Shown here: positions 13,885-63,904 of the stretch, piece by piece
How positions within the stretch are numbered: the stretch's first letter is position 1
How the letters are laid out: every line of letters starts with the position of its first letter
Assembly: GCA_034437215.1 (NCBI GenBank)
Contig: DAOTVC010000106.1
Location: forward strand, 30,369 to 94,368
DNA from: Anaerolineae bacterium
Lineage (GTDB): Bacteria > Chloroflexota > Anaerolineae > B4-G1 > SLSP01
Reading direction: 5' to 3'
Length of the DNA stretch: 64,000 bases
The notes under the pieces: model-generated
What the model was told of the DNA's origin: nothing
Databases searched by the model: none
What the model saw: the letters and a program-made list of their open reading frames with translations, nothing else
Translations under genes and position numbers: made by a program

Positions 13885-13896
13885 GGGAACAGAGAT

Positions 13897-13916
13897 GAGG
13901 GATTGGGGATCAGGGG
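13897..13916 (+). repeat. G-rich GGGATTGGGGATCAGGGG repeat (GGGGATT family)
   Basis: Read directly. The same motif family is at 20163..20209 and 63782..63813. Confidence 0.45.
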
Positions 13917-13937
13917 TATTATCACAAATGGGTCTGT

Positions 13938-13966
13938 TTCAACAAATTGGCTTCCCGCGTTATAAT
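13938..13966 (+). promoter_or_regulatory. Sigma70-like promoter (TTCAAC, 17 bp spacer, TATAAT) for the ccm operon
   Basis: Read directly: ttcaacaaattggcttcccgcgttataat, about 30 nt upstream of ccmE. The -10 lies in the loop of a CCCGC/GCGGG inverted repeat. Confidence 0.4.
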
Positions 13967-17196: not shown

Positions 17197-18020
17197 GGCT
17201 GCGCGCTCTCCTTGTATGCGCCTTAATAGCCCTGTTGCTCCTGACCGGCACGGCGCGCGCACAGGCGCCGGTCACCATCGAACAGGCCCACCTCTTCATC
17301 CGCTTCGCGGAAGATCGGCTGGAGGTGCAGGAGTTTCACTTGCTGAGCAACGCCGGCGAGGAGCCCTACACGGGTGGGGTGGACCCCGACCTGGGCGTGC
17401 CCATCACGGCTCTCTTTGAGCTGCCGCCCGGCGCCGCGGACCTGAGGTTCGCCGACCCGGCGGCGGGGGAGCGTTTTGTCCTCGCACCGGAGGGCTTTGC
17501 CGATACCCTCCCCATCCCCCCCGGCGAGTCCACGGCCGAGGTGCGCTTCACCTACGCGCTCCCTTACCGTCCCGGCGAGCCCTTCTCCCGCACCTTTTCC
17601 CTGCCGGTGGGGGCCGTCGTCGTCGTGCTCCCCGCCGGGGAGCTGGAGCCGGTGGGCGAGGTACTTGCCTATCAGGGGGAGATGCCCGGTGAGGGGCTGA
17701 ACGTCGACGTCTACGTCGCCGGATCGCTGGCGGCGGGGGAGGCGCTGACCCTCTCCCTCGTCCCCCCGGAAGCGGTGACGCCTGCTCGTCCCCCCGCCGA
17801 GGTGGGGCTGGGCGCGGCGCTCCTGGGGCTCTGCCTGCTGGCGTCCCTCTGGCTCTGGCTCTGGCGTCCCTCTCCGACCGCACCCCCCGAGTCGGTCCGG
17901 CCCCTCCTGGCGGAGGTGGCGGCGCTGGATGCCCGCTTCGAGGCGGGGGCGCTGGCGGAGGAGGTCTACCGGCGGGAGCGGGCGGCGCTGAAGGCGGAGG
18001 TGCGCTCCCGGTGCCTCTGA
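17193..18020 (+). CDS. Secreted or membrane-anchored hypothetical protein embedded in the ccm operon
   Basis: Signal peptide MRLRALLVCALIALLLLTGTARAQA. C-terminal TM followed by a charged helical tail. ATGA-coupled to its neighbours. No CxxC motif. Confidence 0.5.
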   Translation: MRLRALLVCALIALLLLTGTARAQAPVTIEQAHLFIRFAEDRLEVQEFHLLSNAGEEPYTGGVDPDLGVPITALFELPPGAADLRFADPAAGERFVLAPEGFADTLPIPPGESTAEVRFTYALPYRPGEPFSRTFSLPVGAVVVVLPAGELEPVGEVLAYQGEMPGEGLNVDVYVAGSLAAGEALTLSLVPPEAVTPARPPAEVGLGAALLGLCLLASLWLWLWRPSPTAPPESVRPLLAEVAALDARFEAGALAEEVYRRERAALKAEVRSRCL

Positions 18021-19474
18021 TCCCCTCTCCTGCCCCGCCCGCCATCTGGACCGCCGCCCTCGAGAAGCGCTTCGGCCCCACCGTGGCCCTCGACGGCGTG
18101 GACCTGGTGGTGGAGCCGGGGGAGTTCGTCGTCCTCGTAGGCCCCAACGGCGCGGGCAAGACGACACTGCTGCGCACCCTGGCGACCCTGGCCCGCCCCA
18201 CCTCGGGCGAGCTGCGCATCGCCGGTCTCGACCCCGCGGCGGCGGGACGCGCCATCCGCCGGCGCATCGGCTTTCTCTCCCACCGCACCCTGCTCTACGA
18301 GGAGCTGAGCGCCGGGGAGAACCTGGCCCTCTACGCCCGCCTCTACCGCTTGGAGGAGCCCGCCGCCCGCATCGACGAGCTCCTCGACCGCGTCGACCTC
18401 GACTGGCGGCGCAACGACCTCGTCCGAACCCTCTCCCGGGGCATGCAGCAGCGCCTTGCGGTGGCCCGCGCGGTGCTCCACCGCCCCTCCCTCCTCCTCC
18501 TGGACGAGCCCTACACCGGCCTCGATCCCCTGGCGGCGGAGGCGCTGACGGCGCTGCTGGGCGAGCTCGCCGGGGGGGGGAGCACGGTGCTGCTGACTAC
18601 CCACACGCTGGAGGGGCTGGGAGCGGCAGGGCGGCGGGTGGTCGTTCTCAACCGGGGGCGGATCGTCCACGACGGGGTGGTGGCGGAGTGGGGCGCCTTC
18701 CCCGGGCTCTACCGCCGCCTGGTGCTGGAAGAGGCGGAGGTGGTAGCGTCGATCGCTCTGGGCGAGGAGCGACCGCCTGAGGGCCGGGTAGACGAGGAGC
18801 GGGGTGGAACGCTGGCCGCCGTGTTCGCCATCGTGCGCAAGGACTTGGCGGCGGAGCTCCACACGCGGGAGATGGTCAACGCCATGTTCGTCTTCGCCGT
18901 CCTGACGCTCCTCATCTTCAGCTTCGCCCTCGACCTGCGGGGTGCCACCGCCCGGGCGGCGGCGCCGGGCGTCCTCTGGACGGCCGTGGCCTTCGCCGGG
19001 ACGCTGGGGCTGAGCCGCTCGCTGGCCCGCGAGGAGCAGAGCGGCGCCATCGAGGGGCTGCTCCTGGCCCCCGTTGACCGGGTGACCCTCTTCTTCGGCA
19101 AGGCGCTGGGCAACCTGCTCCTGATGCTCTTCGTCGAGGGGGTGCTCCTGCTGCTGGGCAGCGTCCTCTTCGACGTTCCCCTCCTGCAGCCGGCGGTGCT
19201 CCTGGTGATGGTGCTGGGCACGGTGGGCTACGCCGCCGTGGGGACCCTGCTGGCGGCCATGGCGGTCAACACCCGGGCACGGGAGGTGCTGCTGCCCATC
19301 CTGCTCCTGCCCCTGGCGATCCCGCTCTTCATCGGTGCGGTGCGCGCCACGGGCGGACTGCTGGAGGGGCTGGGGCTGGCGGAGGTCAACCCGTGGCTGC
19401 GCCTCGTCGTGGTCTACGACCTGCTGATGGTCGCCGTCTCCATGGTGACCTTCGAGTACGTGATTGCCGAGTGA
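18011..19474 (+). CDS. ccmAB: CcmA-CcmB fusion: heme exporter ABC ATPase fused to the CcmB permease
   Basis: N-terminal Walker A GPNGAGKTT, signature LSRGMQQRL, Walker B LLLDEP. The C-terminal roughly 220 aa is a multi-TM CcmB-like segment (ILLLPLAIPLFIGAV). GTG start overlaps the upstream stop. Confidence 0.65.
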   Translation: MPLIPSPAPPAIWTAALEKRFGPTVALDGVDLVVEPGEFVVLVGPNGAGKTTLLRTLATLARPTSGELRIAGLDPAAAGRAIRRRIGFLSHRTLLYEELSAGENLALYARLYRLEEPAARIDELLDRVDLDWRRNDLVRTLSRGMQQRLAVARAVLHRPSLLLLDEPYTGLDPLAAEALTALLGELAGGGSTVLLTTHTLEGLGAAGRRVVVLNRGRIVHDGVVAEWGAFPGLYRRLVLEEAEVVASIALGEERPPEGRVDEERGGTLAAVFAIVRKDLAAELHTREMVNAMFVFAVLTLLIFSFALDLRGATARAAAPGVLWTAVAFAGTLGLSRSLAREEQSGAIEGLLLAPVDRVTLFFGKALGNLLLMLFVEGVLLLLGSVLFDVPLLQPAVLLVMVLGTVGYAAVGTLLAAMAVNTRAREVLLPILLLPLAIPLFIGAVRATGGLLEGLGLAEVNPWLRLVVVYDLLMVAVSMVTFEYVIAE

Positions 19475-19483
19475 GGAATTAGA

Positions 19484-20170
19484 ATGAAAAACGAGAGAGG
19501 GTTCGGGCCCGTCCTCATCGCCCTGGCGGCGGTCGCCTTTCTGGCGGCCCTGGGCATGGTCTTCTACTACGCGCCCCGCGAGGCGACGATGGGGGAGGTG
19601 CAGCGCATCTTCTACTTCCACGTGGCCTCGGCGTGGGTGGGCTTCTTCGGCTTCTTCGTCACCTTCGTGGGGAGCGCGGGCTACCTCCTGAGCGGGCGGC
19701 GCCCGTGGGACGTCCTGGCTCTCTCCTCGGCAGAGGTGGGGCTAGTCTTCATCACCATGACGCTGCTCACCGGCATGCTCTGGGCGCGCCCCGTCTGGGG
19801 CACCTACTGGACCTGGGAGCCGCGCCTGACCATCTCGGCGGTGCAGTGGCTCATCTACGTGGCCTACGTCATGGTGCGGGGTTCCGTGGAGAGCCGGGAG
19901 CGGAGCGCGCGCTTCGCCGCCGTCTACGGCATCGCCGCCTTCGTCACCGTCCCCCTCTCCTGGTTCGCCATACGCTGGTGGCGGACCATCCACCCGCAGA
20001 TCATCGGCGGCGGGGAGATGGCCCTCACCCCGCAGATGCTCCACACCCTCTTCGCCTCCATCGGCGCCTTCACCCTCCTCTACGCCGCCTTCCTCCTCTA
20101 CCGCGTGCGCCTGGAGCGCGCCCGGGACCGCTTGGCGGCGCTGCGGGGGCGGCGGGGTCGTCGGGGATGA
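19484..20170 (+). CDS. ccmC: Heme exporter protein CcmC
   Basis: Trp-rich WWD motif WGTYWTWEPRLT. Multi-TM. Confidence 0.75.
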   Translation: MKNERGFGPVLIALAAVAFLAALGMVFYYAPREATMGEVQRIFYFHVASAWVGFFGFFVTFVGSAGYLLSGRRPWDVLALSSAEVGLVFITMTLLTGMLWARPVWGTYWTWEPRLTISAVQWLIYVAYVMVRGSVESRERSARFAAVYGIAAFVTVPLSWFAIRWWRTIHPQIIGGGEMALTPQMLHTLFASIGAFTLLYAAFLLYRVRLERARDRLAALRGRRGRRG

Positions 20171-20209
20171 GGGATTGGGGACTGGGGATTGGGGATTGGG
20201 GATCAGGGG
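20101..20209 (+). repeat. Extended G-tract run ending in a (GGGGATT/GGGGACT)n array
   Basis: Read directly: gggggcggcggggtcgtcggggatgagggattggggactggggattggggattggggatcagggg. It overlaps the ccmC 3' end and stop. The complementary CCCTGATCCCT repeat occurs twice at 20294..20327, so a long-range inverted arrangement exists. Confidence 0.5.
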
Positions 20210-20353
20210 CCCTTTCTACTTCCCGATTACTATGTCCTGCCAACACTGGCGCCGAGCGGGTTTAATGACGGGGTCGGAGTGATATACCATGACGCTATTG
20301 CACTCCCTGATCCCTCTTCTCTCTTCCCTGATCCCTATCTTTTAGGAGGTTCC

Positions 20354-20494
20354 ATGCCCAGCTATCTGATCGCCGCTTACGCTATCTTCGTTGCCGTGCC
20401 GCTGCTGCTGGCCCTCTCCCTCTACCTGCGCCACCGCCAGGTGGAGCGCGCCGTCCGGGACCTGCGGCAGGCGGAGCGGGAGGGGCGCGGATAG
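20354..20494 (+). CDS. ccmD: Putative heme exporter protein CcmD (46 aa, single TM)
   Basis: MPSYLIAAYAIFVAVPLLLALSLYLRHRQ... followed by a basic tail. TAGGAGG RBS 5 nt upstream. Position after ccmC matches the usual ccm order. Below the track length cutoff. Confidence 0.4.
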   Translation: MPSYLIAAYAIFVAVPLLLALSLYLRHRQVERAVRDLRQAEREGRG

Positions 20495-20562
20495 ACGCAG
20501 CGCCTCGCTGACTGGCGCCCTTCACCTTTCACGCCGATTCACCTCACGCGACACATGCCCCA

Positions 20563-20590
20563 TTGACTTGTCGCCGTTTGGTGCTATGAT
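20563..20590 (+). promoter_or_regulatory. Sigma70-like promoter (TTGACT, 16 bp spacer, TATGAT) for tRNA-Val
   Basis: Read directly: ttgacttgtcgccgtttggtgctatgat. The -10 ends about 12 nt before tRNA position 1. Confidence 0.4.
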
Positions 20591-20602
20591 GAGCTCCGTC
20601 GT

Positions 20603-20676
20603 GGGCGGTTAGCTCAGTCGGCCAGAGCGCCTTTCTTACACGTAGGAGGTCACAGGTTCAAGTCCTGTACCGCCCA
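20603..20676 (+). tRNA. tRNA-Val (anticodon TAC)
   Basis: Manual cloverleaf fold. Acceptor GGGCGGT/ACCGCCC plus discriminator A. D-arm GCTC/GAGC. Anticodon loop CTTACAC with T33 and A37. T-arm ACAGG/CCTGT with a TTCAAGT loop. One mismatch in the anticodon stem. CCA is not encoded. Confidence 0.8.
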
Positions 20677-20893
20677 CTTGCCCTAGACTTTGCTGTGTCC
20701 CTCATTCTCAGTAGATGTTGTGAGCAGTAGTCCTTTCCCGTCACTCCACCGGTTAACCCCTCCACGTCGGAACAGAGGTCGCGTGCCGCCGCCTTGCCGT
20801 CTCTCAATTTTCAAATAAACTTAGGGAGCAAATCGCAAGGGCGGTCGAGGAAAAGCGACCATCCTCCCTGACCAAAATCTCAATCACTGCCGA

Positions 20894-22693
20894 TTGGGGG
20901 AGGGACCTCAAGACGTGAACTGGGAGTATAATCTGGCTCTGATCCTGCTCGTCGTCGCGGCGGGCATCGCTACGCTGTTGGCCCTTTTTACCCGGCGGCG
21001 ACCGGCACCGGGAGCGCGAAAGTTTGCCCTGTTGATGCTCATGTTGGACGGCTGGTACGTGGGGCTGGCGCTCCAGATAGCAGGGGGCAGTCTCCTGATC
21101 AAGTATCTGGGGCTGCGCATTGAGTACACTGTCACCTTCTTCATCGGCGTGCTCTGGCTGGCCTTTGTCTTGAGTTACACCGGCTCCTCCGATTGGCTGA
21201 CGCGTCCCCGAGCCGCCGCTCTCTGTGCCATCCCGGCCCTGAGCACACTCCTCCTCTGGACCAACGGCCAGCACCATCTCCTTCTGCAGGACGTCCATCT
21301 ACCGTCCCCTGCTCCCTTTGTGCCCCTGGAGTGGACGCCGGGTCCCTTGCTCTGGATCGGTCAGCTCTACGTCTATCTCCTGATGGCGAGCGGAGCGGTC
21401 CTTTTGGGACGCCAGATCCTGCGCCTTCCCCAGATCTACGTAGGGCAGATTGCGGCGCTGCTGGTGGGCCTGGCAGTTCTGGTGGTGACGAGCCTCCTCT
21501 ATCTGTTCGAGATTGTCCCCTCCCACGTCCCACTGGGGGCCTATGCCCTGCTCGCCGCCGCGCTCTCCACCGCTTTCGGTCTCTTCCGGTGGCAGCTGCT
21601 GGATCTGGTTCCCGTCGCCCGCGACGTGGTCGTCGACGAGCTGGCGGACGGGGTGCTCGTCTTGGATCGGCAGCGGCGTCTCGTCGACGTCAACCTGGCC
21701 GCCGAGCGCTGGCTGGGTAGCCCCGCTGACGAAGTGGTCGGCAAGGATCTGGCGCGAGTTGCGCCCCTCCTGGCGGAGGGCCTCTTCCCGCTCCTCACCG
21801 GGGAAGCGGGGGCCGATCCCTTCCTGCAGGAGGTGCAGAGGGAGGGGCGCGTCTATACGCTCCGAGTGAGCCCGCTCTACGGACGTGATGGGCAGCCGAC
21901 CGGTTGGGTGCTGGTGCTGCACGACGTGACGGACCTGCGAACCGCTCTGCTCCAGGCGGAGGCAGCAGCCGAGGCCCAGTCGCGCTTCGTCAGCAACGTG
22001 AGCCACGAGCTGCGTACGCCGTTGACCAACATCACCCTCTACCTCGCGCTTCTGGAGCGGGGCAAGCCGGAGCGCCACGCCTTCTACATGGATACCCTCC
22101 ACCGGGAGACGGAGCGCCTGAAGTTTCTCATCGAGGGGCTGCTGCGCCTCTCCCGGCTCGATCTGCAGGAGGTCACTCCGCAGCCGTGCCTCCTGGACGT
22201 CAACGTCCTGGTCGAGACCCTGGCGCAGGATCGCCGACCTCTCTTTGCCGAGCACGAACTGGAGCTCGGTACGCAGCTGGAGCCCGCGCTCCCCGCCGTG
22301 AGCGCCGATCCCCAGCTGCTCGAGCAGGTCCTCACGAATCTGCTCAGCAACGCGCTCAACTACACGCCTGCCGGGGGGCATGTGTGGGTGCAGACCGACG
22401 AGAGCGCGGAGGAGGGGACGCACTGGGTCACGATCAGCGTTCGGGATACGGGCGTGGGCATCAGCGCCGAGGAGCAGGCCCGGCTCTTCACCCGCTTCTA
22501 CCGGGGCGCAGCCAGCCGCAATCCCGAGACGGCAGCGCCGGGCACGGGGTTGGGCTTGGCCATCTCTCAGGAGATCATGGCCCTGCACGCGGGGCGCATC
22601 ACTGTGGAGAGCGAGGGGGGGGAGGGGAGCACCTTCACCCTCTGGCTGCCCGCCGATGCCAACGGTGCTCCTGATACCCTACGCAACACGTAG
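20894..22693 (+). CDS. Sensor histidine kinase: N-terminal 7TM sensor domain, PAS, HisKA, HATPase_c
   Basis: Multi-TM N-terminus paralogous to those of the HKs at 31991 and 42532. H-box SHELRTPL. HATPase motifs DTGVGI and GTGLGLAI. The start may be the GTG at 20915 rather than the TTG at 20894. Confidence 0.8.
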   Translation: MGEGPQDVNWEYNLALILLVVAAGIATLLALFTRRRPAPGARKFALLMLMLDGWYVGLALQIAGGSLLIKYLGLRIEYTVTFFIGVLWLAFVLSYTGSSDWLTRPRAAALCAIPALSTLLLWTNGQHHLLLQDVHLPSPAPFVPLEWTPGPLLWIGQLYVYLLMASGAVLLGRQILRLPQIYVGQIAALLVGLAVLVVTSLLYLFEIVPSHVPLGAYALLAAALSTAFGLFRWQLLDLVPVARDVVVDELADGVLVLDRQRRLVDVNLAAERWLGSPADEVVGKDLARVAPLLAEGLFPLLTGEAGADPFLQEVQREGRVYTLRVSPLYGRDGQPTGWVLVLHDVTDLRTALLQAEAAAEAQSRFVSNVSHELRTPLTNITLYLALLERGKPERHAFYMDTLHRETERLKFLIEGLLRLSRLDLQEVTPQPCLLDVNVLVETLAQDRRPLFAEHELELGTQLEPALPAVSADPQLLEQVLTNLLSNALNYTPAGGHVWVQTDESAEEGTHWVTISVRDTGVGISAEEQARLFTRFYRGAASRNPETAAPGTGLGLAISQEIMALHAGRITVESEGGEGSTFTLWLPADANGAPDTLRNT

Positions 22694-25644: not shown

Positions 25645-26096
25645 CCTCTCTGCGCGCCGTTCTATACTCTTCGAGAAGGTGGGGTGGGTCAGGGGTGAGG
25701 GAGGTGGGGTGGTGTCGGAACGCCCGGAGTACGGACGTGGAGGCGTCTATCATCTCTATAATCGTGGTGCACATCGGCTCTCTGTCTTCCGTGAGCCGGA
25801 GAACTACTACTTCGTGCTTCGCAAGATGAAACGATACTGCTATCAGTTTGATCTTACTCCACTGGCTTACTGTTTATTGCCCAATCACTATCCCTGTAGT
25901 GCATGGGTTAGTTGATGATCTAGAGAAGTGGCCTTACTCTAACTATTTGGAGTGGATTGGAGAGCGTGACGGCAGTCTTGTGGATCGAGAGTTTATCAAA
26001 AGTTACTTTGAAACATCGGAAGCGTATCGACGTTACGTTAACGATTATCTAGCAAGATGTAGAACACTAGATGGATTGGATTATTTAGATACTTGA
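25631..26096 (+). pseudogene. Frameshifted IS200/IS605-like REP-associated tyrosine transposase (RAYT, Y1 HUH transposase) remnant
   Basis: Frame 1 reads ...GGVYHLYNRGAHRLSVF...LAYCLLPNHY, the HUH region broken after NHY. Frame 2 continues ...WPYSNYLEW..., the catalytic-Tyr region. The frameshift is near 25895. Local GC is far below the genome background. Confidence 0.5.
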
Positions 26097-53010: not shown

Positions 53011-53290
53011 ATATCGCTTGGGTGTGTTTCAAAAGTTGGCTCTACTGAAATAACTCTATTTCACCACGGAGGACACAGAGAACACTGAGAAAATCATGGA
53101 GATTCTTATGAAAGTTAAACCTAAAGTGCATTTCGTAGAGTTTAACATCAAAAAATCTCCGTGGTCTCCGTGGTAAGAGATCTTTTTTCAGCGGAGTCAA
53201 AGTTATGAGCTATCATGGCTGAAACGTCAGGCGTGAAACGGAGGGCTTCACGCTTTACGCTTCACGTTTCACGCTGCGGTTCACTTCTCA
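53011..53290. repeat. Decayed copy of the GTGAAACG-core element seen at 59820: left end intact, about 170 bp AT-rich internal insertion, right terminal repeat deleted
   Basis: Read directly. Left end ttgggtgtgtttcaa. Core gctgaaacgtcaggcgtgaaacg...cacgtttcacgc is collinear with 59866..59925. The junction ggtt|cac lacks the 30-nt right-end segment present at 59.9 kb. Confidence 0.45.
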
Positions 53291-53314
53291 CTGTTACTTT
53301 TTAGGAGGCCTTGC

Positions 53315-54466
53315 ATGGACTACGACTTCGACCGCGTCGTTCCCCGGCGACAGACCGAGAGCATCAAGTGGAACTGGTGCGAGGAGGACGAGCTGCCCAT
53401 GTGGGTGGCGGACATGGACTTCCGCTCCCCCAAAGCGGTGATCGAGGCGCTCCACGCCCGCGTCGAGCACGGGGTCTTCGGTTACGGGCAGTGCAGCGAC
53501 GACCTGCGCCGGGCCATCGTCGAGCGCCTTGAACGCCTCTACGCCTGGTCGGTAGCGCCCGAGGCCCTCGTCTTCCTGCCCGGCGTCGTCCCTGGCTTCA
53601 ACATGGCGGCCCAGGCCTTCTGCCAACCCGGCGACGGCCTGCTGGTGCAGACGCCCGTCTATCCGCCCATGCTGCACGCGGCGGAGAACGCCGACCTCAT
53701 CTCCCGCGAGATGGAGCTGACCCGGAGGGCGGACGGGGAGTACAAGATCGATCTCGACCGCTTCGCGACGCTCGCTCGGGAGAGCCGTATCTTCCTGCTC
53801 TGCAACCCCCATAACCCGGTGGGGCGGGTCTTCCGCCGCACGGAGCTGGAGCGCATGGCGGAGGTCTGCCTGCGCCACGACGTCGTTATCTGCTCCGACG
53901 AGATCCACTGCGATCTGATCTTCAGCGGCTACGAGCACCTGCCCATCGCCGCCCTGGCTCCCGAGATCGAGGCGCGGACCGTCACCCTCATGGCGCCCAG
54001 TAAGACCTTCAACATCGCCGGTCTCTCCTGCGCCTTCGCCGTCGTTCCCGACGCCGAACTGCGCGCCCGCTTCAAGGAGGGCCGGCTGGGGCTGGTGGGC
54101 CATCCCAACGTCCTCGGTTACACGGCGGCCCTAGCCGCCTACCAGGAGGGCGGACCCTGGCTGGAGGCGCTGCTGACCTACCTGGAGGCCAACCGTGACT
54201 TCACCCACGAGTACGTCGAGGCGGAGCTGCCGGGTATCGACATGGCCTCTCCCGAGGGGACCTACCTGGCGTGGCTGGACTGCCGGAACGCGGAGATTCC
54301 CGGCAATCCCTACGACTTCTTCCGCGAGGAGGCCCGCGTCATGCTCAACGACGGGGCCGCCTTTGGCCCCGGGGGGCAGGGCTTTGTGCGCCTGAACTTC
54401 GGCACACCCCGCGCTCTCCTGGAGGAGGGGCTGGGCCGGATGCGCCAGGCGCTCCTGGAATTGTAG
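53315..54466 (+). CDS. PLP-dependent aminotransferase class I/II, MalY/PatB-type C-S lyase
   Basis: N-terminal MDYDFDRVVPRRQTESIKWN typical of the PatB/MalY family. PLP-Lys region SKTFNIAGL. RBS TAGGAGG. Confidence 0.8.
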   Translation: MDYDFDRVVPRRQTESIKWNWCEEDELPMWVADMDFRSPKAVIEALHARVEHGVFGYGQCSDDLRRAIVERLERLYAWSVAPEALVFLPGVVPGFNMAAQAFCQPGDGLLVQTPVYPPMLHAAENADLISREMELTRRADGEYKIDLDRFATLARESRIFLLCNPHNPVGRVFRRTELERMAEVCLRHDVVICSDEIHCDLIFSGYEHLPIAALAPEIEARTVTLMAPSKTFNIAGLSCAFAVVPDAELRARFKEGRLGLVGHPNVLGYTAALAAYQEGGPWLEALLTYLEANRDFTHEYVEAELPGIDMASPEGTYLAWLDCRNAEIPGNPYDFFREEARVMLNDGAAFGPGGQGFVRLNFGTPRALLEEGLGRMRQALLEL

Positions 54467-54498
54467 GAACCGTTCTCACGATGGCTCTTTTTGGTATA

Positions 54499-54577
54499 CC
54501 GTATTGCGTATTCCGTATTGCGTACTGTGTGTCTGGTGAACAGCGCGACTACGCGACTATCTGACTGCCCGACTATC
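54499..54577. promoter_or_regulatory. Tandem repeat 2x CCGTATTGCGTAYT, followed by four CGACTA(T/C)C-like direct repeats
   Basis: Read directly: ccgtattgcgtattccgtattgcgtact ... gcgactacgcgactatctgactgcccgactatc. Lies immediately upstream of the M20 peptidase RBS. Confidence 0.35.
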
Positions 54578-54592
54578 TTTTGGAGGTGACCA

Positions 54593-55972
54593 ATGAAGGC
54601 AATTGAGTACACTCGATCGAGAAAATCGCGTTTTCTAGCCGAATTGAAGGACTTCCTGCGCATTCCCAGCGTCAGCACCCAGGTGCAGCACCGGGAGGAC
54701 GTGGTGCGAGCGGCGGAGTGGCTGCGGGACCGACTCCTCGAGGCGGGCTTCCCGCGCGCCGAGGTCATGTCCACCCAGGGCCATCCCGTCGTCTACGCCG
54801 AGTGGCTGGAGGCGGGCGAGGAGGCGCCCACGGTGCTCCTCTACGGGCACTATGACGTCCAGCCCCCTGATCCTGTCGACCTCTGGCGGACGCCGCCCTT
54901 CGAGCCGACGGAGGTGGGGGACGACCTCTATGCGCGCGGCGTCTCCGACGACAAGGGGCAGCTCTACGCTCACGTCAAGGCCGTCGAGGCCTTCAAGGAG
55001 ACGGCGGGGCACCCGCCCGTCAACCTGAAGTGCATCTTCGAGGGGGAGGAGGAGATCGGCAGCCCCAGCCTCAACCCCTTCATCGAGACCCACCAGGAGC
55101 TCCTCGCCGCCGACGTGGCCCTCATCTCCGACTCCCACATCCTGGGCAAGGAGCTCCCCTCCATCATCTACGCCCTGCGGGGGTTGGCCTATCTCGAGGT
55201 CGAGGTGACCGGTCCGGCCCACGACCTGCACTCAGGCATCTTCGGCGGGGCGGTGCTCAATCCCATCAATGCTCTCTGCAAGATGATCGCCGGCCTCCAC
55301 GACGATGCGGGCCGGATCACCGTCCCCGGCTTCTACGACAACGTCCGCGCCCTGACGCCCGAGGAGCGCGAGGCCCTCTCTGAGATCCCCTTCGAGCGGG
55401 AGGGGTGGCTGCGGGAGGCGTCCGTGACCCGGGAGTGGGGCGAGCAGGGGTACACCATCATCGAGCGGACGAGCGCCCGCCCGACCCTGGACGTCAATGG
55501 CATCTGGGGGGGCTACACGGAGCCGGGAGCCAAGACGGTGCTGCCCAGCAAGGCTCACGCCAAGATCTCCATGCGGCTGGTGCCCGATCAGAGACCCGAG
55601 CGGATCAGCGAGGTCGTCACCCGTCACCTCGAGAGCATCGCCCCGGCGGGCGTCAGCGTGGAGGTGCAGGATCTCCACGGCGGTGAGGGGGCCATCGTCG
55701 ATCGCGACAGCCCCGCCATGCGGGCCGCCGTCGAGGCCTACACCGCGACCTTCGGGCGGCAGCCCGTCTTCACCCGCGAGGGGGGCTCCATCCCCGTCGT
55801 CGCGGCCTTCCAACGCACCCTTGGAATCGAGACTATCCTCATGGGCTTCGGCCTGCCCGACGACAACCTCCACGCTCCCAACGAGAAGTTTCACCTCCCG
55901 ATGTTCTACCGGGCCATCGAGACGGCGATTCATTTCTACGAGAAGCTGGCCGAGAGGGAGGTGGTCTCATGA
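54593..55972 (+). CDS. M20 family dipeptidase
   Basis: M20 metal-binding motifs [17 protein letters not shown] and the EGEEEIGS region. About 459 aa, the dipeptidase subfamily length. Confidence 0.8.
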
Positions 55973-59816: not shown

Positions 59817-59819
59817 CCA

Positions 59820-59958
59820 AATTCAGTTGGGTGTGTTTCAATCCAGTTGTGAGCTATCCGTAGCTGAAACGTAAAGCGTGAAACGTGAGGGCCTCACGGT
59901 TTACGTTTCACGTTTCACGCCTCGGTTTAACTCAAGTGAAACACACCCAATTCAGTTC
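59820..59958. mobile_element. MITE-like / REP-doublet element: about 14-bp terminal inverted repeats TTGGGTGTGTTTCA/TGAAACACACCCAA, flanked by an ATTCAGT direct repeat, with internal GTGAAACG palindromes
   Basis: Read directly: aattcagttgggtgtgtttca...gtgaaacgtgagggcctcacggtttacgtttcacgtttcacgc...tgaaacacacccaattcagtt. No ORF. Sits 4 nt after the korB stop. Confidence 0.55.
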
Positions 59959-60042
59959 ACCCTCTCGGCGCAACGTTCTCCCTCCTTGCGGGGGGAGAGC
60001 GTTGCGCCTCTTGTTGGGTTGGGACTCGCGGTGGATGTCAGG

Positions 60043-60147
60043 CAAGATGCCTGTTCTAGATTCGCGAGCGCTCCTAACCCAGGGCGCCGGATGCTCCCGA
60101 TAGGTCTCCGGCACAGCAAGATGCCTGTTCTAGATTCGCGAGCGCTC

Positions 60148-62398: not shown

Positions 62399-63724
62399 TC
62401 AGTGGCGCAGCAGCGGGGCCTGGAACTCCTCCAGCGGTACGGGGGCGCCGTAACGCAGAATGGCGGCGACCTCGGGCAGGCGCATGCGCCCACCCTCGAC
62501 CGCTACCGGCTCCCCGCCCAGCAGCTCCTCGTAACTGCCGTCGGGCAGCTGGACACCGACTTCGCCCTGTTCGCCGGTGACGTTGAAGACCCCGTAGAGG
62601 CTCTCCGTGGGGTGCTCCCACGCTGCCTGGATGGTGCCCTCACTCTCCAGGAGCAGCCGCCGGCCCTCCAGCAGGGCCGGCTCCTTCTTGAGGTGTGCGA
62701 GTTTCGTGTAGTAAGCCTGCAGCGGGTAGTCGCCCCACTCGATCTTGTCGATCTCGAAGAGGGAGGGGGTGTGGTCGGCGCCCGCCTGCTGACCGGCGTA
62801 GATGAGGAAGGAGCCCTTGTTGAAGGCCTCGAAGGCGGCCCAGGCCAGGGCCTGCTCGCGGGTGGGGGCGTAGGCCAGGATGCGCGGCTGGTCGTGGTTC
62901 TCGACGCAGCGCATCTTGACGTAGTTCTCGGGGTAGATGCAGTCCTGGAAGCGGACCATCTCCAGGTAGCGGGAGGTGGGAACCTCGTGCCTGACGGCGG
63001 CCTGCCAGACGGGCCAGATGTCGTAGTCGTAGGTCATGTCGAAGGCGCGGTAGAGTTGTGCGTCGGCGACGCCCGTCAGCCCCGCCTCCCGCCGCTCGGC
63101 GACGAAGATGGCGTGCACCGATTCGGCGAGCCAGATGACGCCGGGGCGCACCTCGGCGACGGCCTCCCGCGCCCGCAGCCAGAAGTCGAGGGGGACGAGG
63201 GAGGCGACGTCACAGCGGAAGCCGTCGACGCCGAACTCCACCCAGCCCCGGAGGGTCTCGATGAGGTAGTCGGCGAGCTCCGAGTTGGGGTGCTGCAGGT
63301 CGATGACGTCGCTCCAGACGGGGACGGTGGTGTAGGGCCGGCCCGCTTCGTCCTGGTGGTACCAGTCGGGGTGGCGCGCTACCATCACCGAGTCGTGGGC
63401 GGTGTGATTGAAGACGACGTCGATCATCACCTGCAGGCCCAGGTCATGAGCCCTCTCCACGAGCCGCTTGAAGTCCTCCCGGGTGCCGTACTCGGGATTG
63501 ACCTCCCGGTAGTCGACGATGGAGTAGGGGGAGCCCAGGGACCCCTTGCGATGCTCCTTGCCGATGGGGTGGATGGGCATGAACCATATCACGTCGACGC
63601 CCATTTCGCGAATGCGGGCCAGGTCCGCCTCCACGTCTGCGAAGGTGCCGTTCGGCCCGTGGTTGCGAACGTAGATCTCGTAGAGAACAAGATTGCGATA
63701 GTGCCGGGGCGTATCCTCGGCCAT
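62399..63724 (-). CDS. Alpha-amylase family glycoside hydrolase (GH13)
   Basis: GH13 conserved regions [35 protein letters not shown] and FVENHDQPR-like. Confidence 0.8.
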
Positions 63725-63781
63725 GGTTATCCTCCTTTCAAAAACTGGTGAGCAGTGAGAGGTGAACGGAGAGAAAGGCTC

Positions 63782-63813
63782 AGGGATTAGGGAGCCGGGA
63801 CTGGGGATTAGGG
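63782..63813 (+). repeat. G-rich GGGATTAGGG-type repeat (same family as 13897 and 20163), followed by a CT-rich TTCTCAC tract
   Basis: Read directly: cagggattagggagccgggactggggattaggg, then ...ctctctctcctctcttctcacttctgacttctcac. Confidence 0.4.
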
Positions 63814-63904
63814 CTTAACACCGCAGCCTTGCTCCTCACACCGGGCCTCTCACGAGTGTCACCTCTCTCTCCTCTCTTCTCACTTCTGACTTCTCACTAC
63901 TCCG

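Follow-up and report, generated by a model that had tools for sequence, protein, structure and literature searches.

The junction between ccmC and ccmD in the 64-kb stretch of Anaerolineae bacterium DNA analysed here (contig DAOTVC010000106.1; hereafter the window, whose positions serve as coordinates) carries a lineage-specific insertion of 169 nt. This element is an inverted pair of simple sequence repeats (SSRs): a G-rich GGGGA(T/C)T microsatellite that starts in the last codons of ccmC and a C/T-rich partner array. The G-rich array is a slippage-prone, hypervariable microsatellite and, judged at the level of sequence, the element is a member of the class of heptamer SSRs capable of forming G-quadruplexes (G4) described by Rehm et al. 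(2015, PLoS One 10:e0144275; PMC4692102). We consider it probable that the element is a tolerated, structured SSR pair, made of a slippage-prone G-array and a partner arm, and not a dedicated attenuator. The features discussed are collected in Table 1.

The G-rich arm straddles the end of ccmC, whose stop codon (TGA, 20168–20170) is embedded in the heptamer array. The original prediction, made from the letters of this DNA, had counted at least eight G-tracts across the 3′ end and stop of ccmC. There are nine (GGGGG at 20145; GGGG at 20154 and 20163; GGG at 20171; GGGG at 20177, 20184, 20191, 20198 and 20206), but the first three are coding and specify the RGRRGRRG tail of CcmC, so that only the last six lie in the intergenic array. 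A regular-expression (regex) scan found no other run in the window with more than five G-tracts, and the G4Hunter score of the whole window peaks here (2.52). From 20163 to 20209, the units read GGGGATG AGGGATT GGGGACT GGGGATT GGGGATT GGGGATC AGGGG, just two of them being perfect GGGGATT; Tandem Repeats Finder (TRF) reports (GGGGATT)x5.9 at 20163–20203 with 85% matches, and a weaker period-7 array at 20304–20336 in the opposite arm. As had been predicted, the motif GGGATCAGGG, found on the forward strand at 20199–20208, recurs twice downstream as its reverse complement: the two copies of CCCTGATCCC occupy 20305–20314 and 20326–20335 of the 3′ arm, shortly 5′ of the ccmD ribosome-binding site. 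Such recurrence exceeds expectation, with four matches to GGGATCAGGG in the window against 0.37 expected (0 of 100 shuffles reached four) and five matches to GGGGATTGGGGA at up to one mismatch against 0.56 expected (again 0 of 100 shuffles). CcmC is 65–80% identical to CcmC of Anaerolineae, its best match among GTDB representatives, where the species of the window is not represented, being 79% identical; the Pfam score of CcmD is just over the cut-off, and the protein is homologous to the CcmD encoded directly 3′ of ccmC in 65 relatives.

Table 1. Coordinates of the ccmC–ccmD element, its flanking genes and the related G-heptamer arrays of the window
Feature	Position	Strand	Basis or remark
ccmC, 228 aa	19484–20170	+	open reading frame (ORF) list; Pfam Cytochrom_C_asm PF01578, E = 1e-28
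G-tract run, n = 9	20145–20209	+	regex scan; G4Hunter maximum
G-rich heptamer array (5′ arm), hypervariable part	20163–20209	+	TRF period 7; lag-7 autocorrelation
Complete inserted element, 169 nt	20171–20339	+	junction comparison with relatives
Central spacer, about 90 nt, without repeat, fast-evolving	20210–20299	+	identity versus four-fold sites
C/T-rich 3′ arm	20300–20339	+	inverted matches; TRF; folds
Shine–Dalgarno (SD) sequence AGGAGG of ccmD	20344–20349	+	4 nt past the 3′ arm; kept in all six junctions
ccmD, 46 aa	20354–20494	+	Pfam CcmD PF04995, E = 1e-5, 26.0 bits versus a cut-off of 25.6
Short family copy, GATGAGGGATTGGGGATCAGGGG	13894–13916	+	three tracts; G-arm only, without inverted partner
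Third G-heptamer array, GGGATTA GGGAGCC GGGACTG GGGATTA GGG	63783–63813	+	between two minus-strand genes
Amylase ORF	62399–63724

Across 65 related Anaerolineae with a recognisable ccmD, the median distance from the ccmC stop to the ccmD start is 11 nt, and the gap of 183 nt in the window is the third longest in this comparison. Removing 20171–20339 leaves TGA + ttttAGGAGGttcc + ATG, which is an ordinary junction. Given this restoration and the short median gap of the relatives, the 169 nt are an insertion. The same junction has been filled independently by unrelated heptamer or octamer arrays in several other lineages, for example with the units GGGTGAT (L020), CCAGTGA/CCAATGA (L021 and L026), CAAAATGA (L022) and CAGACCA with its complement (L045), and period-7 arrays are common across 80 related loci.

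Variation among close relatives was followed in five metagenome contigs that span the junction and were found through proteins 98% and 95% identical to the CcmC of the window. The element occupies the same position in each of them, where the gaps measure 190, 204, 204, 232 and 232 nt, and the inverted pair is retained in 6/6 junctions when the window is included. The differences in length reside in the G-array after the stop, which measures 39, 47, 61, 61, 86 and 89 nt in the window and its relatives and brings the number of G-tracts in the relatives to 8–12, while the stretch from the C-arm to the ATG is constant at 55–56 nt. Four contigs with 100% identical ccmC DNA have arrays of 47, 61, 61 and 89 nt. 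The arrays differ in steps of 14 and 28 nt, one of which is a duplicated block of four units. Because 7-nt units are gained and lost much faster than point substitutions accumulate, we attribute this variation to slippage (slipped-strand mispairing). The central spacer of the window is 66–71% identical to that of the relatives, compared with 90–93% at four-fold degenerate sites and 81–91% in the arms. Since the spacer thus diverges faster than four-fold sites, it is not a conserved RNA or promoter.

The original prediction that this site can form either a G4 or a hairpin agrees with in silico folding. The sense RNA of 20165–20340 is predicted to fold into a long, imperfect, G·U-rich hairpin between the G-arm and the C-arm (−74.6 kcal/mol, z = −3.0), which the antisense RNA does not match (−53.8 kcal/mol, z = −1.0); the sense strand is favoured by 21 kcal/mol. 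Each copy of UCCCUGAUCCCU pairs with (A/G)GGGAUUGGGGA through two wobble pairs. With the G4 term of ViennaRNA, a four-layer G4 (20184–20209) appears in the minimum-energy structure at 37 °C (−81.7 kcal/mol), and the hairpin ties with or beats the G4 at 55–70 °C. In an alignment of the six junctions, the consensus stem is the same as that of the single sequence and comprises 23 pairs, with 96.6% of the cells paired. Five stem pairs have changed on one side with a standard pair kept (G-C to G-U, or A-U to G-U), and one has changed from U-A to C-G, reading GGGAUUAGGG/CCCUAAUCCC in relatives and GGGAUCAGGG/CCCUGAUCCC in the window. The SD sequence is unpaired in folds of the element itself and is partly and weakly paired in longer folds. 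When the G-arm is left out, the C-arm has essentially no structure of its own and gives only weak masking of the SD; we therefore discarded the idea that a freed C-arm sequesters the SD as a strong switch, this pairing being weak (−7.7 kcal/mol, z = +1.2). We also discarded the idea that the ccmC stop always lies in the base of a stem bridging to the SD, which is true in the window, whereas the outer units of the relatives shift the stop by up to 50 nt. Searches against Rfam 15 returned only a tRNA-Val, both at 20000–20900 (E ≤ 1) and over the whole window (gathering score).

The element belongs to a family of heptamer arrays that is exclusively intergenic within the genome sequence examined. 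Tandem GGGANTN units occur at three loci of the window (13894–13916, 20163–20209 and 63783–63813), all intergenic, which bears out the earlier claim of a dispersed motif family. A uniform spread of the motif, the outcome that the original prediction had named as contrary to its proposal, was not seen in the window: 8/10 occurrences of tandem GGGANTNGGG fall in the 9.7% of the sequence that is non-coding. Lone GGGGAYT or GGGGATC heptamers, in turn, are scattered mostly through coding DNA, as expected from composition. By autocorrelation, all six lag-7 arrays in the window (with the units GTGAAAC, GGGGATT, CGTATTG and TCACTTC) are non-coding, and all ten lag-6 arrays are coding. All three G-arrays lie between aligned ORFs. 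The short copy begins 10 nt past the stop of the upstream gene, upstream of ccmE, and shares its flanks (GATGA… and …TCAGGGG) exactly with the copy at 20165. The array at 63783 is on the non-coding strand, 60–90 nt upstream of the ATG at 63724; the C-arm of the ccmC–ccmD element, whose G-rich strand is likewise the non-coding one, is separated from the ccmD ATG by 14 nt. No further G-array was found in an additional 8.5 kb of the same genome (about 72 kb examined overall).

A short-read metagenome-assembled genome (MAG) of the same organism (GCA_046541445.1, with a 100% identical CcmC) has contigs that end inside the arrays at 20163 and 63783, the latter contig being JBKHDH010000009.1. These breaks, at two of the three loci, fit repeated or hard-to-sequence DNA.

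In the reading that we favour, the element would be co-transcribed with the ccm operon, and its G-arm and C-arm would pair in the mRNA through many G-C and G·U pairs. The resulting long, imperfect hairpin would compete with an intramolecular G4 and leave the ccmD ribosome-binding site open. With its SD open, ccmD would be translated from its own strong AGGAGG rather than through tight coupling to ccmC. A G-rich sequence after the stop and a C-rich one before the start may also be the orientation that disturbs initiation least. The net effect of the element on expression is probably small, although such a hairpin may make the message upstream of it more stable. Several observations weigh against this reading. 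At 37 °C, the G4 model of ViennaRNA prefers the quadruplex to the hairpin. Covariation was considered as support for the stem and rejected, as the alignment holds four distinct sequences and its score was matched by 41/500 shuffles, which is not significant; moreover, L206 disrupts the sole compensatory pair in this register, and arms built of repeats can remain complementary without selection. Because the relatives carry up to 13 G-units against a fixed C-arm, the hairpin could cover only part of the array. Finally, a drop in coverage at G-rich DNA could also explain the assembly breaks.

The closest alternative takes the element as a pure mutational by-product, in which slippage makes the arrays, selection only purges them from coding DNA and ribosome-binding sites, and the structure of the transcript is inconsequential. 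It overlaps with the favoured reading and differs from it solely in whether the hairpin matters. The spacer that evolves faster than four-fold sites, the unconstrained length of the array and the independent origin of unrelated arrays at the same junction all speak for it, as does the statement, credited to Mrazek (2007) where it is cited in PMC4679880, that among the long SSRs of bacteria heptamers form the most frequent class. We nevertheless regard it as rather unlikely, since the element persists across lineages that differ by about 10% at four-fold sites, the C-arm retains its length and its complementarity to the inner G-units, and the strand asymmetry favours the sense RNA. A somewhat lower probability still is given to a G4 switch, in which a DNA or RNA G4 regulates ccmD or the operon and the length of the array sets the level, whether by stalling RNA polymerase or the ribosome or through an equilibrium between G4 and hairpin that depends on K+ or temperature. 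The nine G-tracts with 3-nt loops, the top G4Hunter score of the window, the quadruplex in the minimum-energy structure at 37 °C, the numerous tracts in the relatives and the G4 that the identical unit forms in vitro (PMC4692102) speak for such a switch. However, the G4 lies past the ccmC stop and 140 nt before the SD and so occludes neither, the hairpin ties or wins at 55–70 °C, the copy at 13894 has only three tracts, the number of tracts is not conserved, and even in the species used to study the repeat class no role in vivo came to light (PMC4692102). In addition, G-tracts are absent from the heptamer arrays that share this architecture at 2276, 53215, 54492 and 59860, so G4 formation is not a property common to the heptamer arrays of this genome.

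It is improbable, in our view, that the paired arrays act as a heritable ‘rheostat’ on an RNA switch that tunes CcmD per CcmC stepwise across a natural population. The C-arm would then pair with only about five G-units, and slippage would shift the balance between hairpin, RNA G4 and free SD-like GGGGA motifs, the last of which could hold post-termination ribosomes. If that were true, the heptamer arrays common at junctions in Anaerolineae would be evolvable intercistronic linkers, some of them read through in frame (CcmA–CcmB). Less credible again is a miniature inverted-repeat transposable element (MITE) with heptamer arrays as terminal inverted repeats, transposed into the junction. The insert is discrete, has inverted arms and sits exactly between the stop and the ancestral SD, and a further small element of the window (59817–59950) does have true terminal inverted repeats. 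Against this, there is no target-site duplication at 20170/20340, the spacer sequence is unique in the 72 kb examined, the copy at 13894 consists of a G-arm only, the arms are variable-number tandem repeats and not fixed termini, and Rehm et al. found no link of heptamer SSRs to mobile elements (PMC4692102). The original prediction had called an attenuator or processing site plausible, and an intrinsic terminator, an attenuator or an RNase processing site between ccmC and ccmD now seems the most remote of these explanations. A long intercistronic stem could act as a barrier to 3′ exonucleases or as a substrate of RNase III, but this one is imperfect and G·U-rich, and the SD is unpaired in folds of the element. 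No terminator-like site was detected in 19900–21000, nor does a T-run (a U-run in the RNA) follow either arm. A scan of the spacer for a ccmD promoter found none, the best candidate, TTTAAT-N16-TATACC, being too weak; termination would thus silence a gene that is conserved beside ccmC in 65 relatives.

Rehm et al. described SSRs with the unit GGGAATC from Xanthomonas and others with the unit GGGGA(C/T)T from Nostoc PCC 7120. These SSRs are dispersed, mostly intergenic and preferentially placed between aligned ORFs, with a preference for arrays of four units (PMC4692102). In each Xanthomonas genome, 70–75 convergent inverted pairs have the potential to form stem-loops that compete with the G4. 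Close relatives retain an SSR at the same locus and of the same type (single or inverted pair) but differ in how many units it has. Formation of G4 was demonstrated by circular dichroism, and no function was found (PMC4692102). The element at ccmC–ccmD has the identical unit, GGGGATT/GGGGACT, in at least two tandem copies (5.9 by TRF), and shares the bias towards non-coding DNA, the position between ORFs of the same direction and the overlap of the array with a stop codon. It also has a second array, whose G-rich strand is the non-coding one, no more than 50 bp ahead of the next ORF, and together the two make a convergent inverted pair able to form a stem-loop competing with the G4. As in the SSRs of Rehm et al., arrays at one locus differ in unit number from one close relative to another, and there is no link to surface or virulence genes. 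On these sequence features rests our assignment to the class. There are also differences. The host is a Chloroflexota (Anaerolineae) with 65% GC and neither a cyanobacterium nor a gammaproteobacterium, the arms are about 90 nt apart and unequal, and the G4 is predicted in silico only. Furthermore, the C-arm is degenerate (CCCTGAT / CCCTCTT / CTCTCTT), unlike in the published pairs, and its pairing consequently relies on G·U.

Other repeat families resemble the element in part. The STRRs (short tandemly repeated repetitive sequences) are dispersed intergenic heptanucleotide tandem arrays of heterocystous cyanobacteria, used mainly as typing markers. Mazel and colleagues reportedly described them in 1990, with STRR1, CCCCAGT, as an example; read on the other strand and rotated, this is GGGGACT, a unit of the ccmC–ccmD array. 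To our knowledge, the definition of STRRs includes neither a paired inverted architecture nor an overlap with stop codons. The REP (repetitive extragenic palindromic) sequences and BIMEs (bacterial interspersed mosaic elements) of enterobacteria are dispersed, transcribed, hairpin-forming repeats between genes of the same direction that can stabilise the upstream mRNA. They differ from the element in being fixed palindromes of about 35 nt, not tandem heptamers, and are not known to show unit-number polymorphism or G4 potential. Intergenic TAACTGA direct repeats occur in Beggiatoaceae, Cyanobacteria and Bacteroidetes near translation starts, and a post-transcriptional action has been proposed for them (MacGregor 2015, PMC4679880). 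They recall the non-G arrays in the window (54492–54575 and 53276–53296) and in L021, L022 and L026, which fill the distance between the stop codon and the SD. The TAACTGA unit itself is A/T-rich, has no G-tracts and no inverted partner, and genomes with it often lack a canonical ribosome-binding site after the repeat, whereas a strong AGGAGG follows the ccmC–ccmD element. Within Chloroflexota, a survey reported (GATAGRA)n satellites in Chloroflexus (PMC6749651); the literature searched yielded no record of GGGGA(C/T)T repeats from this phylum, which is an absence of matches and not a proof of novelty.

If the assignment holds, the GGGGA(C/T)T class extends beyond cyanobacteria and xanthomonads to uncultured, high-GC Chloroflexota, with the same rules of placement relative to stops and starts. 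Because distant phyla share this placement, the repeats may be subject to one constraint, or serve one function, linked to transcription and translation. What this case adds is a natural series of alleles in 7-nt steps, accompanied by a conserved partner arm. The alleles of 47, 61 and 89 nt that share the same ccmC DNA constitute a natural test set for the effect of array length on downstream expression, which the authors who first described the class did not settle. In practical terms, the arrays break short-read assemblies, and metagenome searches for (GGGGATT)n are swamped by the telomeres of rumen ciliates. In a metagenome scan for RGGGATTGGGGAYYRGGG, the matches listed (L083–L161) were mostly gene-sized contigs of 16–35% GC with the repeat at both ends in inverted orientation. 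These low-GC matches are macronuclear telomeres of rumen ciliates, (CCCCAAT)n, some of them joined head to head (GGGGATTGGGCCCAATCCCC). Among the matches listed, only L082, L113, L157 and L158 look bacterial. Because the ciliate telomere repeat dominates the matches, the scan is of little use for counting the family. Arrays of the same G-heptamer type are present on the high-GC bacterial contigs L113 (4667–4684), L082 (1674–1691) and L157 (63–80): that of L113 fills precisely the interval between a TGA stop and the next ATG, a TAG stop lies inside the (GGGATTA)n array of L082, and the inverted complement of the L157 array comes directly after it.

Heptamer arrays also occur elsewhere in the ccm loci of the relatives. 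In L077 (842–972), L026 (1068–1134 and 2365–2431), L022 and L020, long arrays contain TGA in their units, and the stop of the upstream gene lies in the first unit; examples of this type are (GAATGGC)x18.7 between ccmB and ccmC and AATGACC x9.4 after ccmC. Since a unit of 7 nt is not divisible by three, every reading frame meets a stop in such an array. The idea of a stop in every frame, which came from L026, L077 and L020, is inapplicable to GGGGATT, whose unit contains no stop triplet. In L026, the segment comprising the 3′ end of ccmC, the array and the 5′ end of ccmD is present twice, with identical flanks. Between ccmA and ccmB, heptamer arrays are open in the ccmA frame into ccmB in L030 (3131–3270), L016 (about 1850–2050), L069 (3130–3215) and L048 (2120–2203) and would be translated as a low-complexity CcmA–CcmB linker, for example …YRELVQESRIKNYES…QNPKSKIQNPSFFRQVWAIVAKD; the corresponding array of L070 (3217–3271) contains stops. 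The window itself encodes a CcmA–CcmB fusion (CcmAB, 18011–19474). Intercistronic heptamer arrays may be mediators of CcmA–CcmB gene fusion.

Directly after ccmD, the window has a tRNA-Val(TAC) gene (20603–20677) with its own consensus promoter, TTGACT-16-TATGAT (20563–20590), preceded by the heptamer-like units TTCACCT/TTCACGC (region 20520–20590). By coordinate arithmetic, contig 9 of the MAG apparently starts inside this gene, at about 20635.

Several further repeats of the window have a paired or hairpin layout. In the intercistronic spacer 63737–63904, between minus-strand genes, a purine-rich (GTGAGAA)n array immediately after the upstream stop pairs with (TCTCACN)n before the SD in a weak fold (z = −1.7), with a C-rich copy of the GGGATTA array in the loop, a layout like that of ccmC–ccmD. 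At 2276–2330, (CGTGAAA)x3.4 followed by (TTCACGT)x2.4 gives, on the sense (minus) strand, a hairpin with a perfect stem of 18 bp (z = −3.3) between two genes of the same direction, without a U-run after it. The element at 59817–59950, of about 125 nt, has the terminal inverted repeats TTGGGTGTGTTTCA and TGAAACACACCCAA and encloses a GTGAAAC hairpin (z = −5.5). A Logan short-read contig ends just 5′ of this hairpin, and the GTGAAAC hairpin at 53215–53275 (z = −3.0) is homologous to the one at 59860. The motif TGGGTNTGTTTCAA recurs at 13927 (13927–13941) and 53019 (53019–53036). At 54492–54575 and 53276–53296, non-G heptamer or octamer arrays (units CGTATTG, CGCGACTA and TTCACTT/CTCACTG) fill the spacer as far as the ribosome-binding region, TCTTTT(A)GGAGG, of the gene that follows, and the region 54462–54598 has no significant fold (z = +0.8).

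Repeats of other kinds were seen as well. A second intergenic G-rich run at 25681–25709 has five tracts, GGGGTGGGTCAGGGGTGAGGGAGGTGGGG, and is not heptamer-periodic. Between convergent genes, the 32-nt direct repeat GCAAGATGCCTGTTCTAGATTCGCGAGCGCTC occupies 60042–60073 and 60116–60147, 74 nt apart. To the left of the window in the same genome (L202, 12406–12560), a tandem repeat of about 16 nt, (GGGGATCTTGCCYYC)n, follows the palindrome CCCCGGGGGTTTAAACCCCCGGGG and is intergenic, lying after an ABC permease gene.

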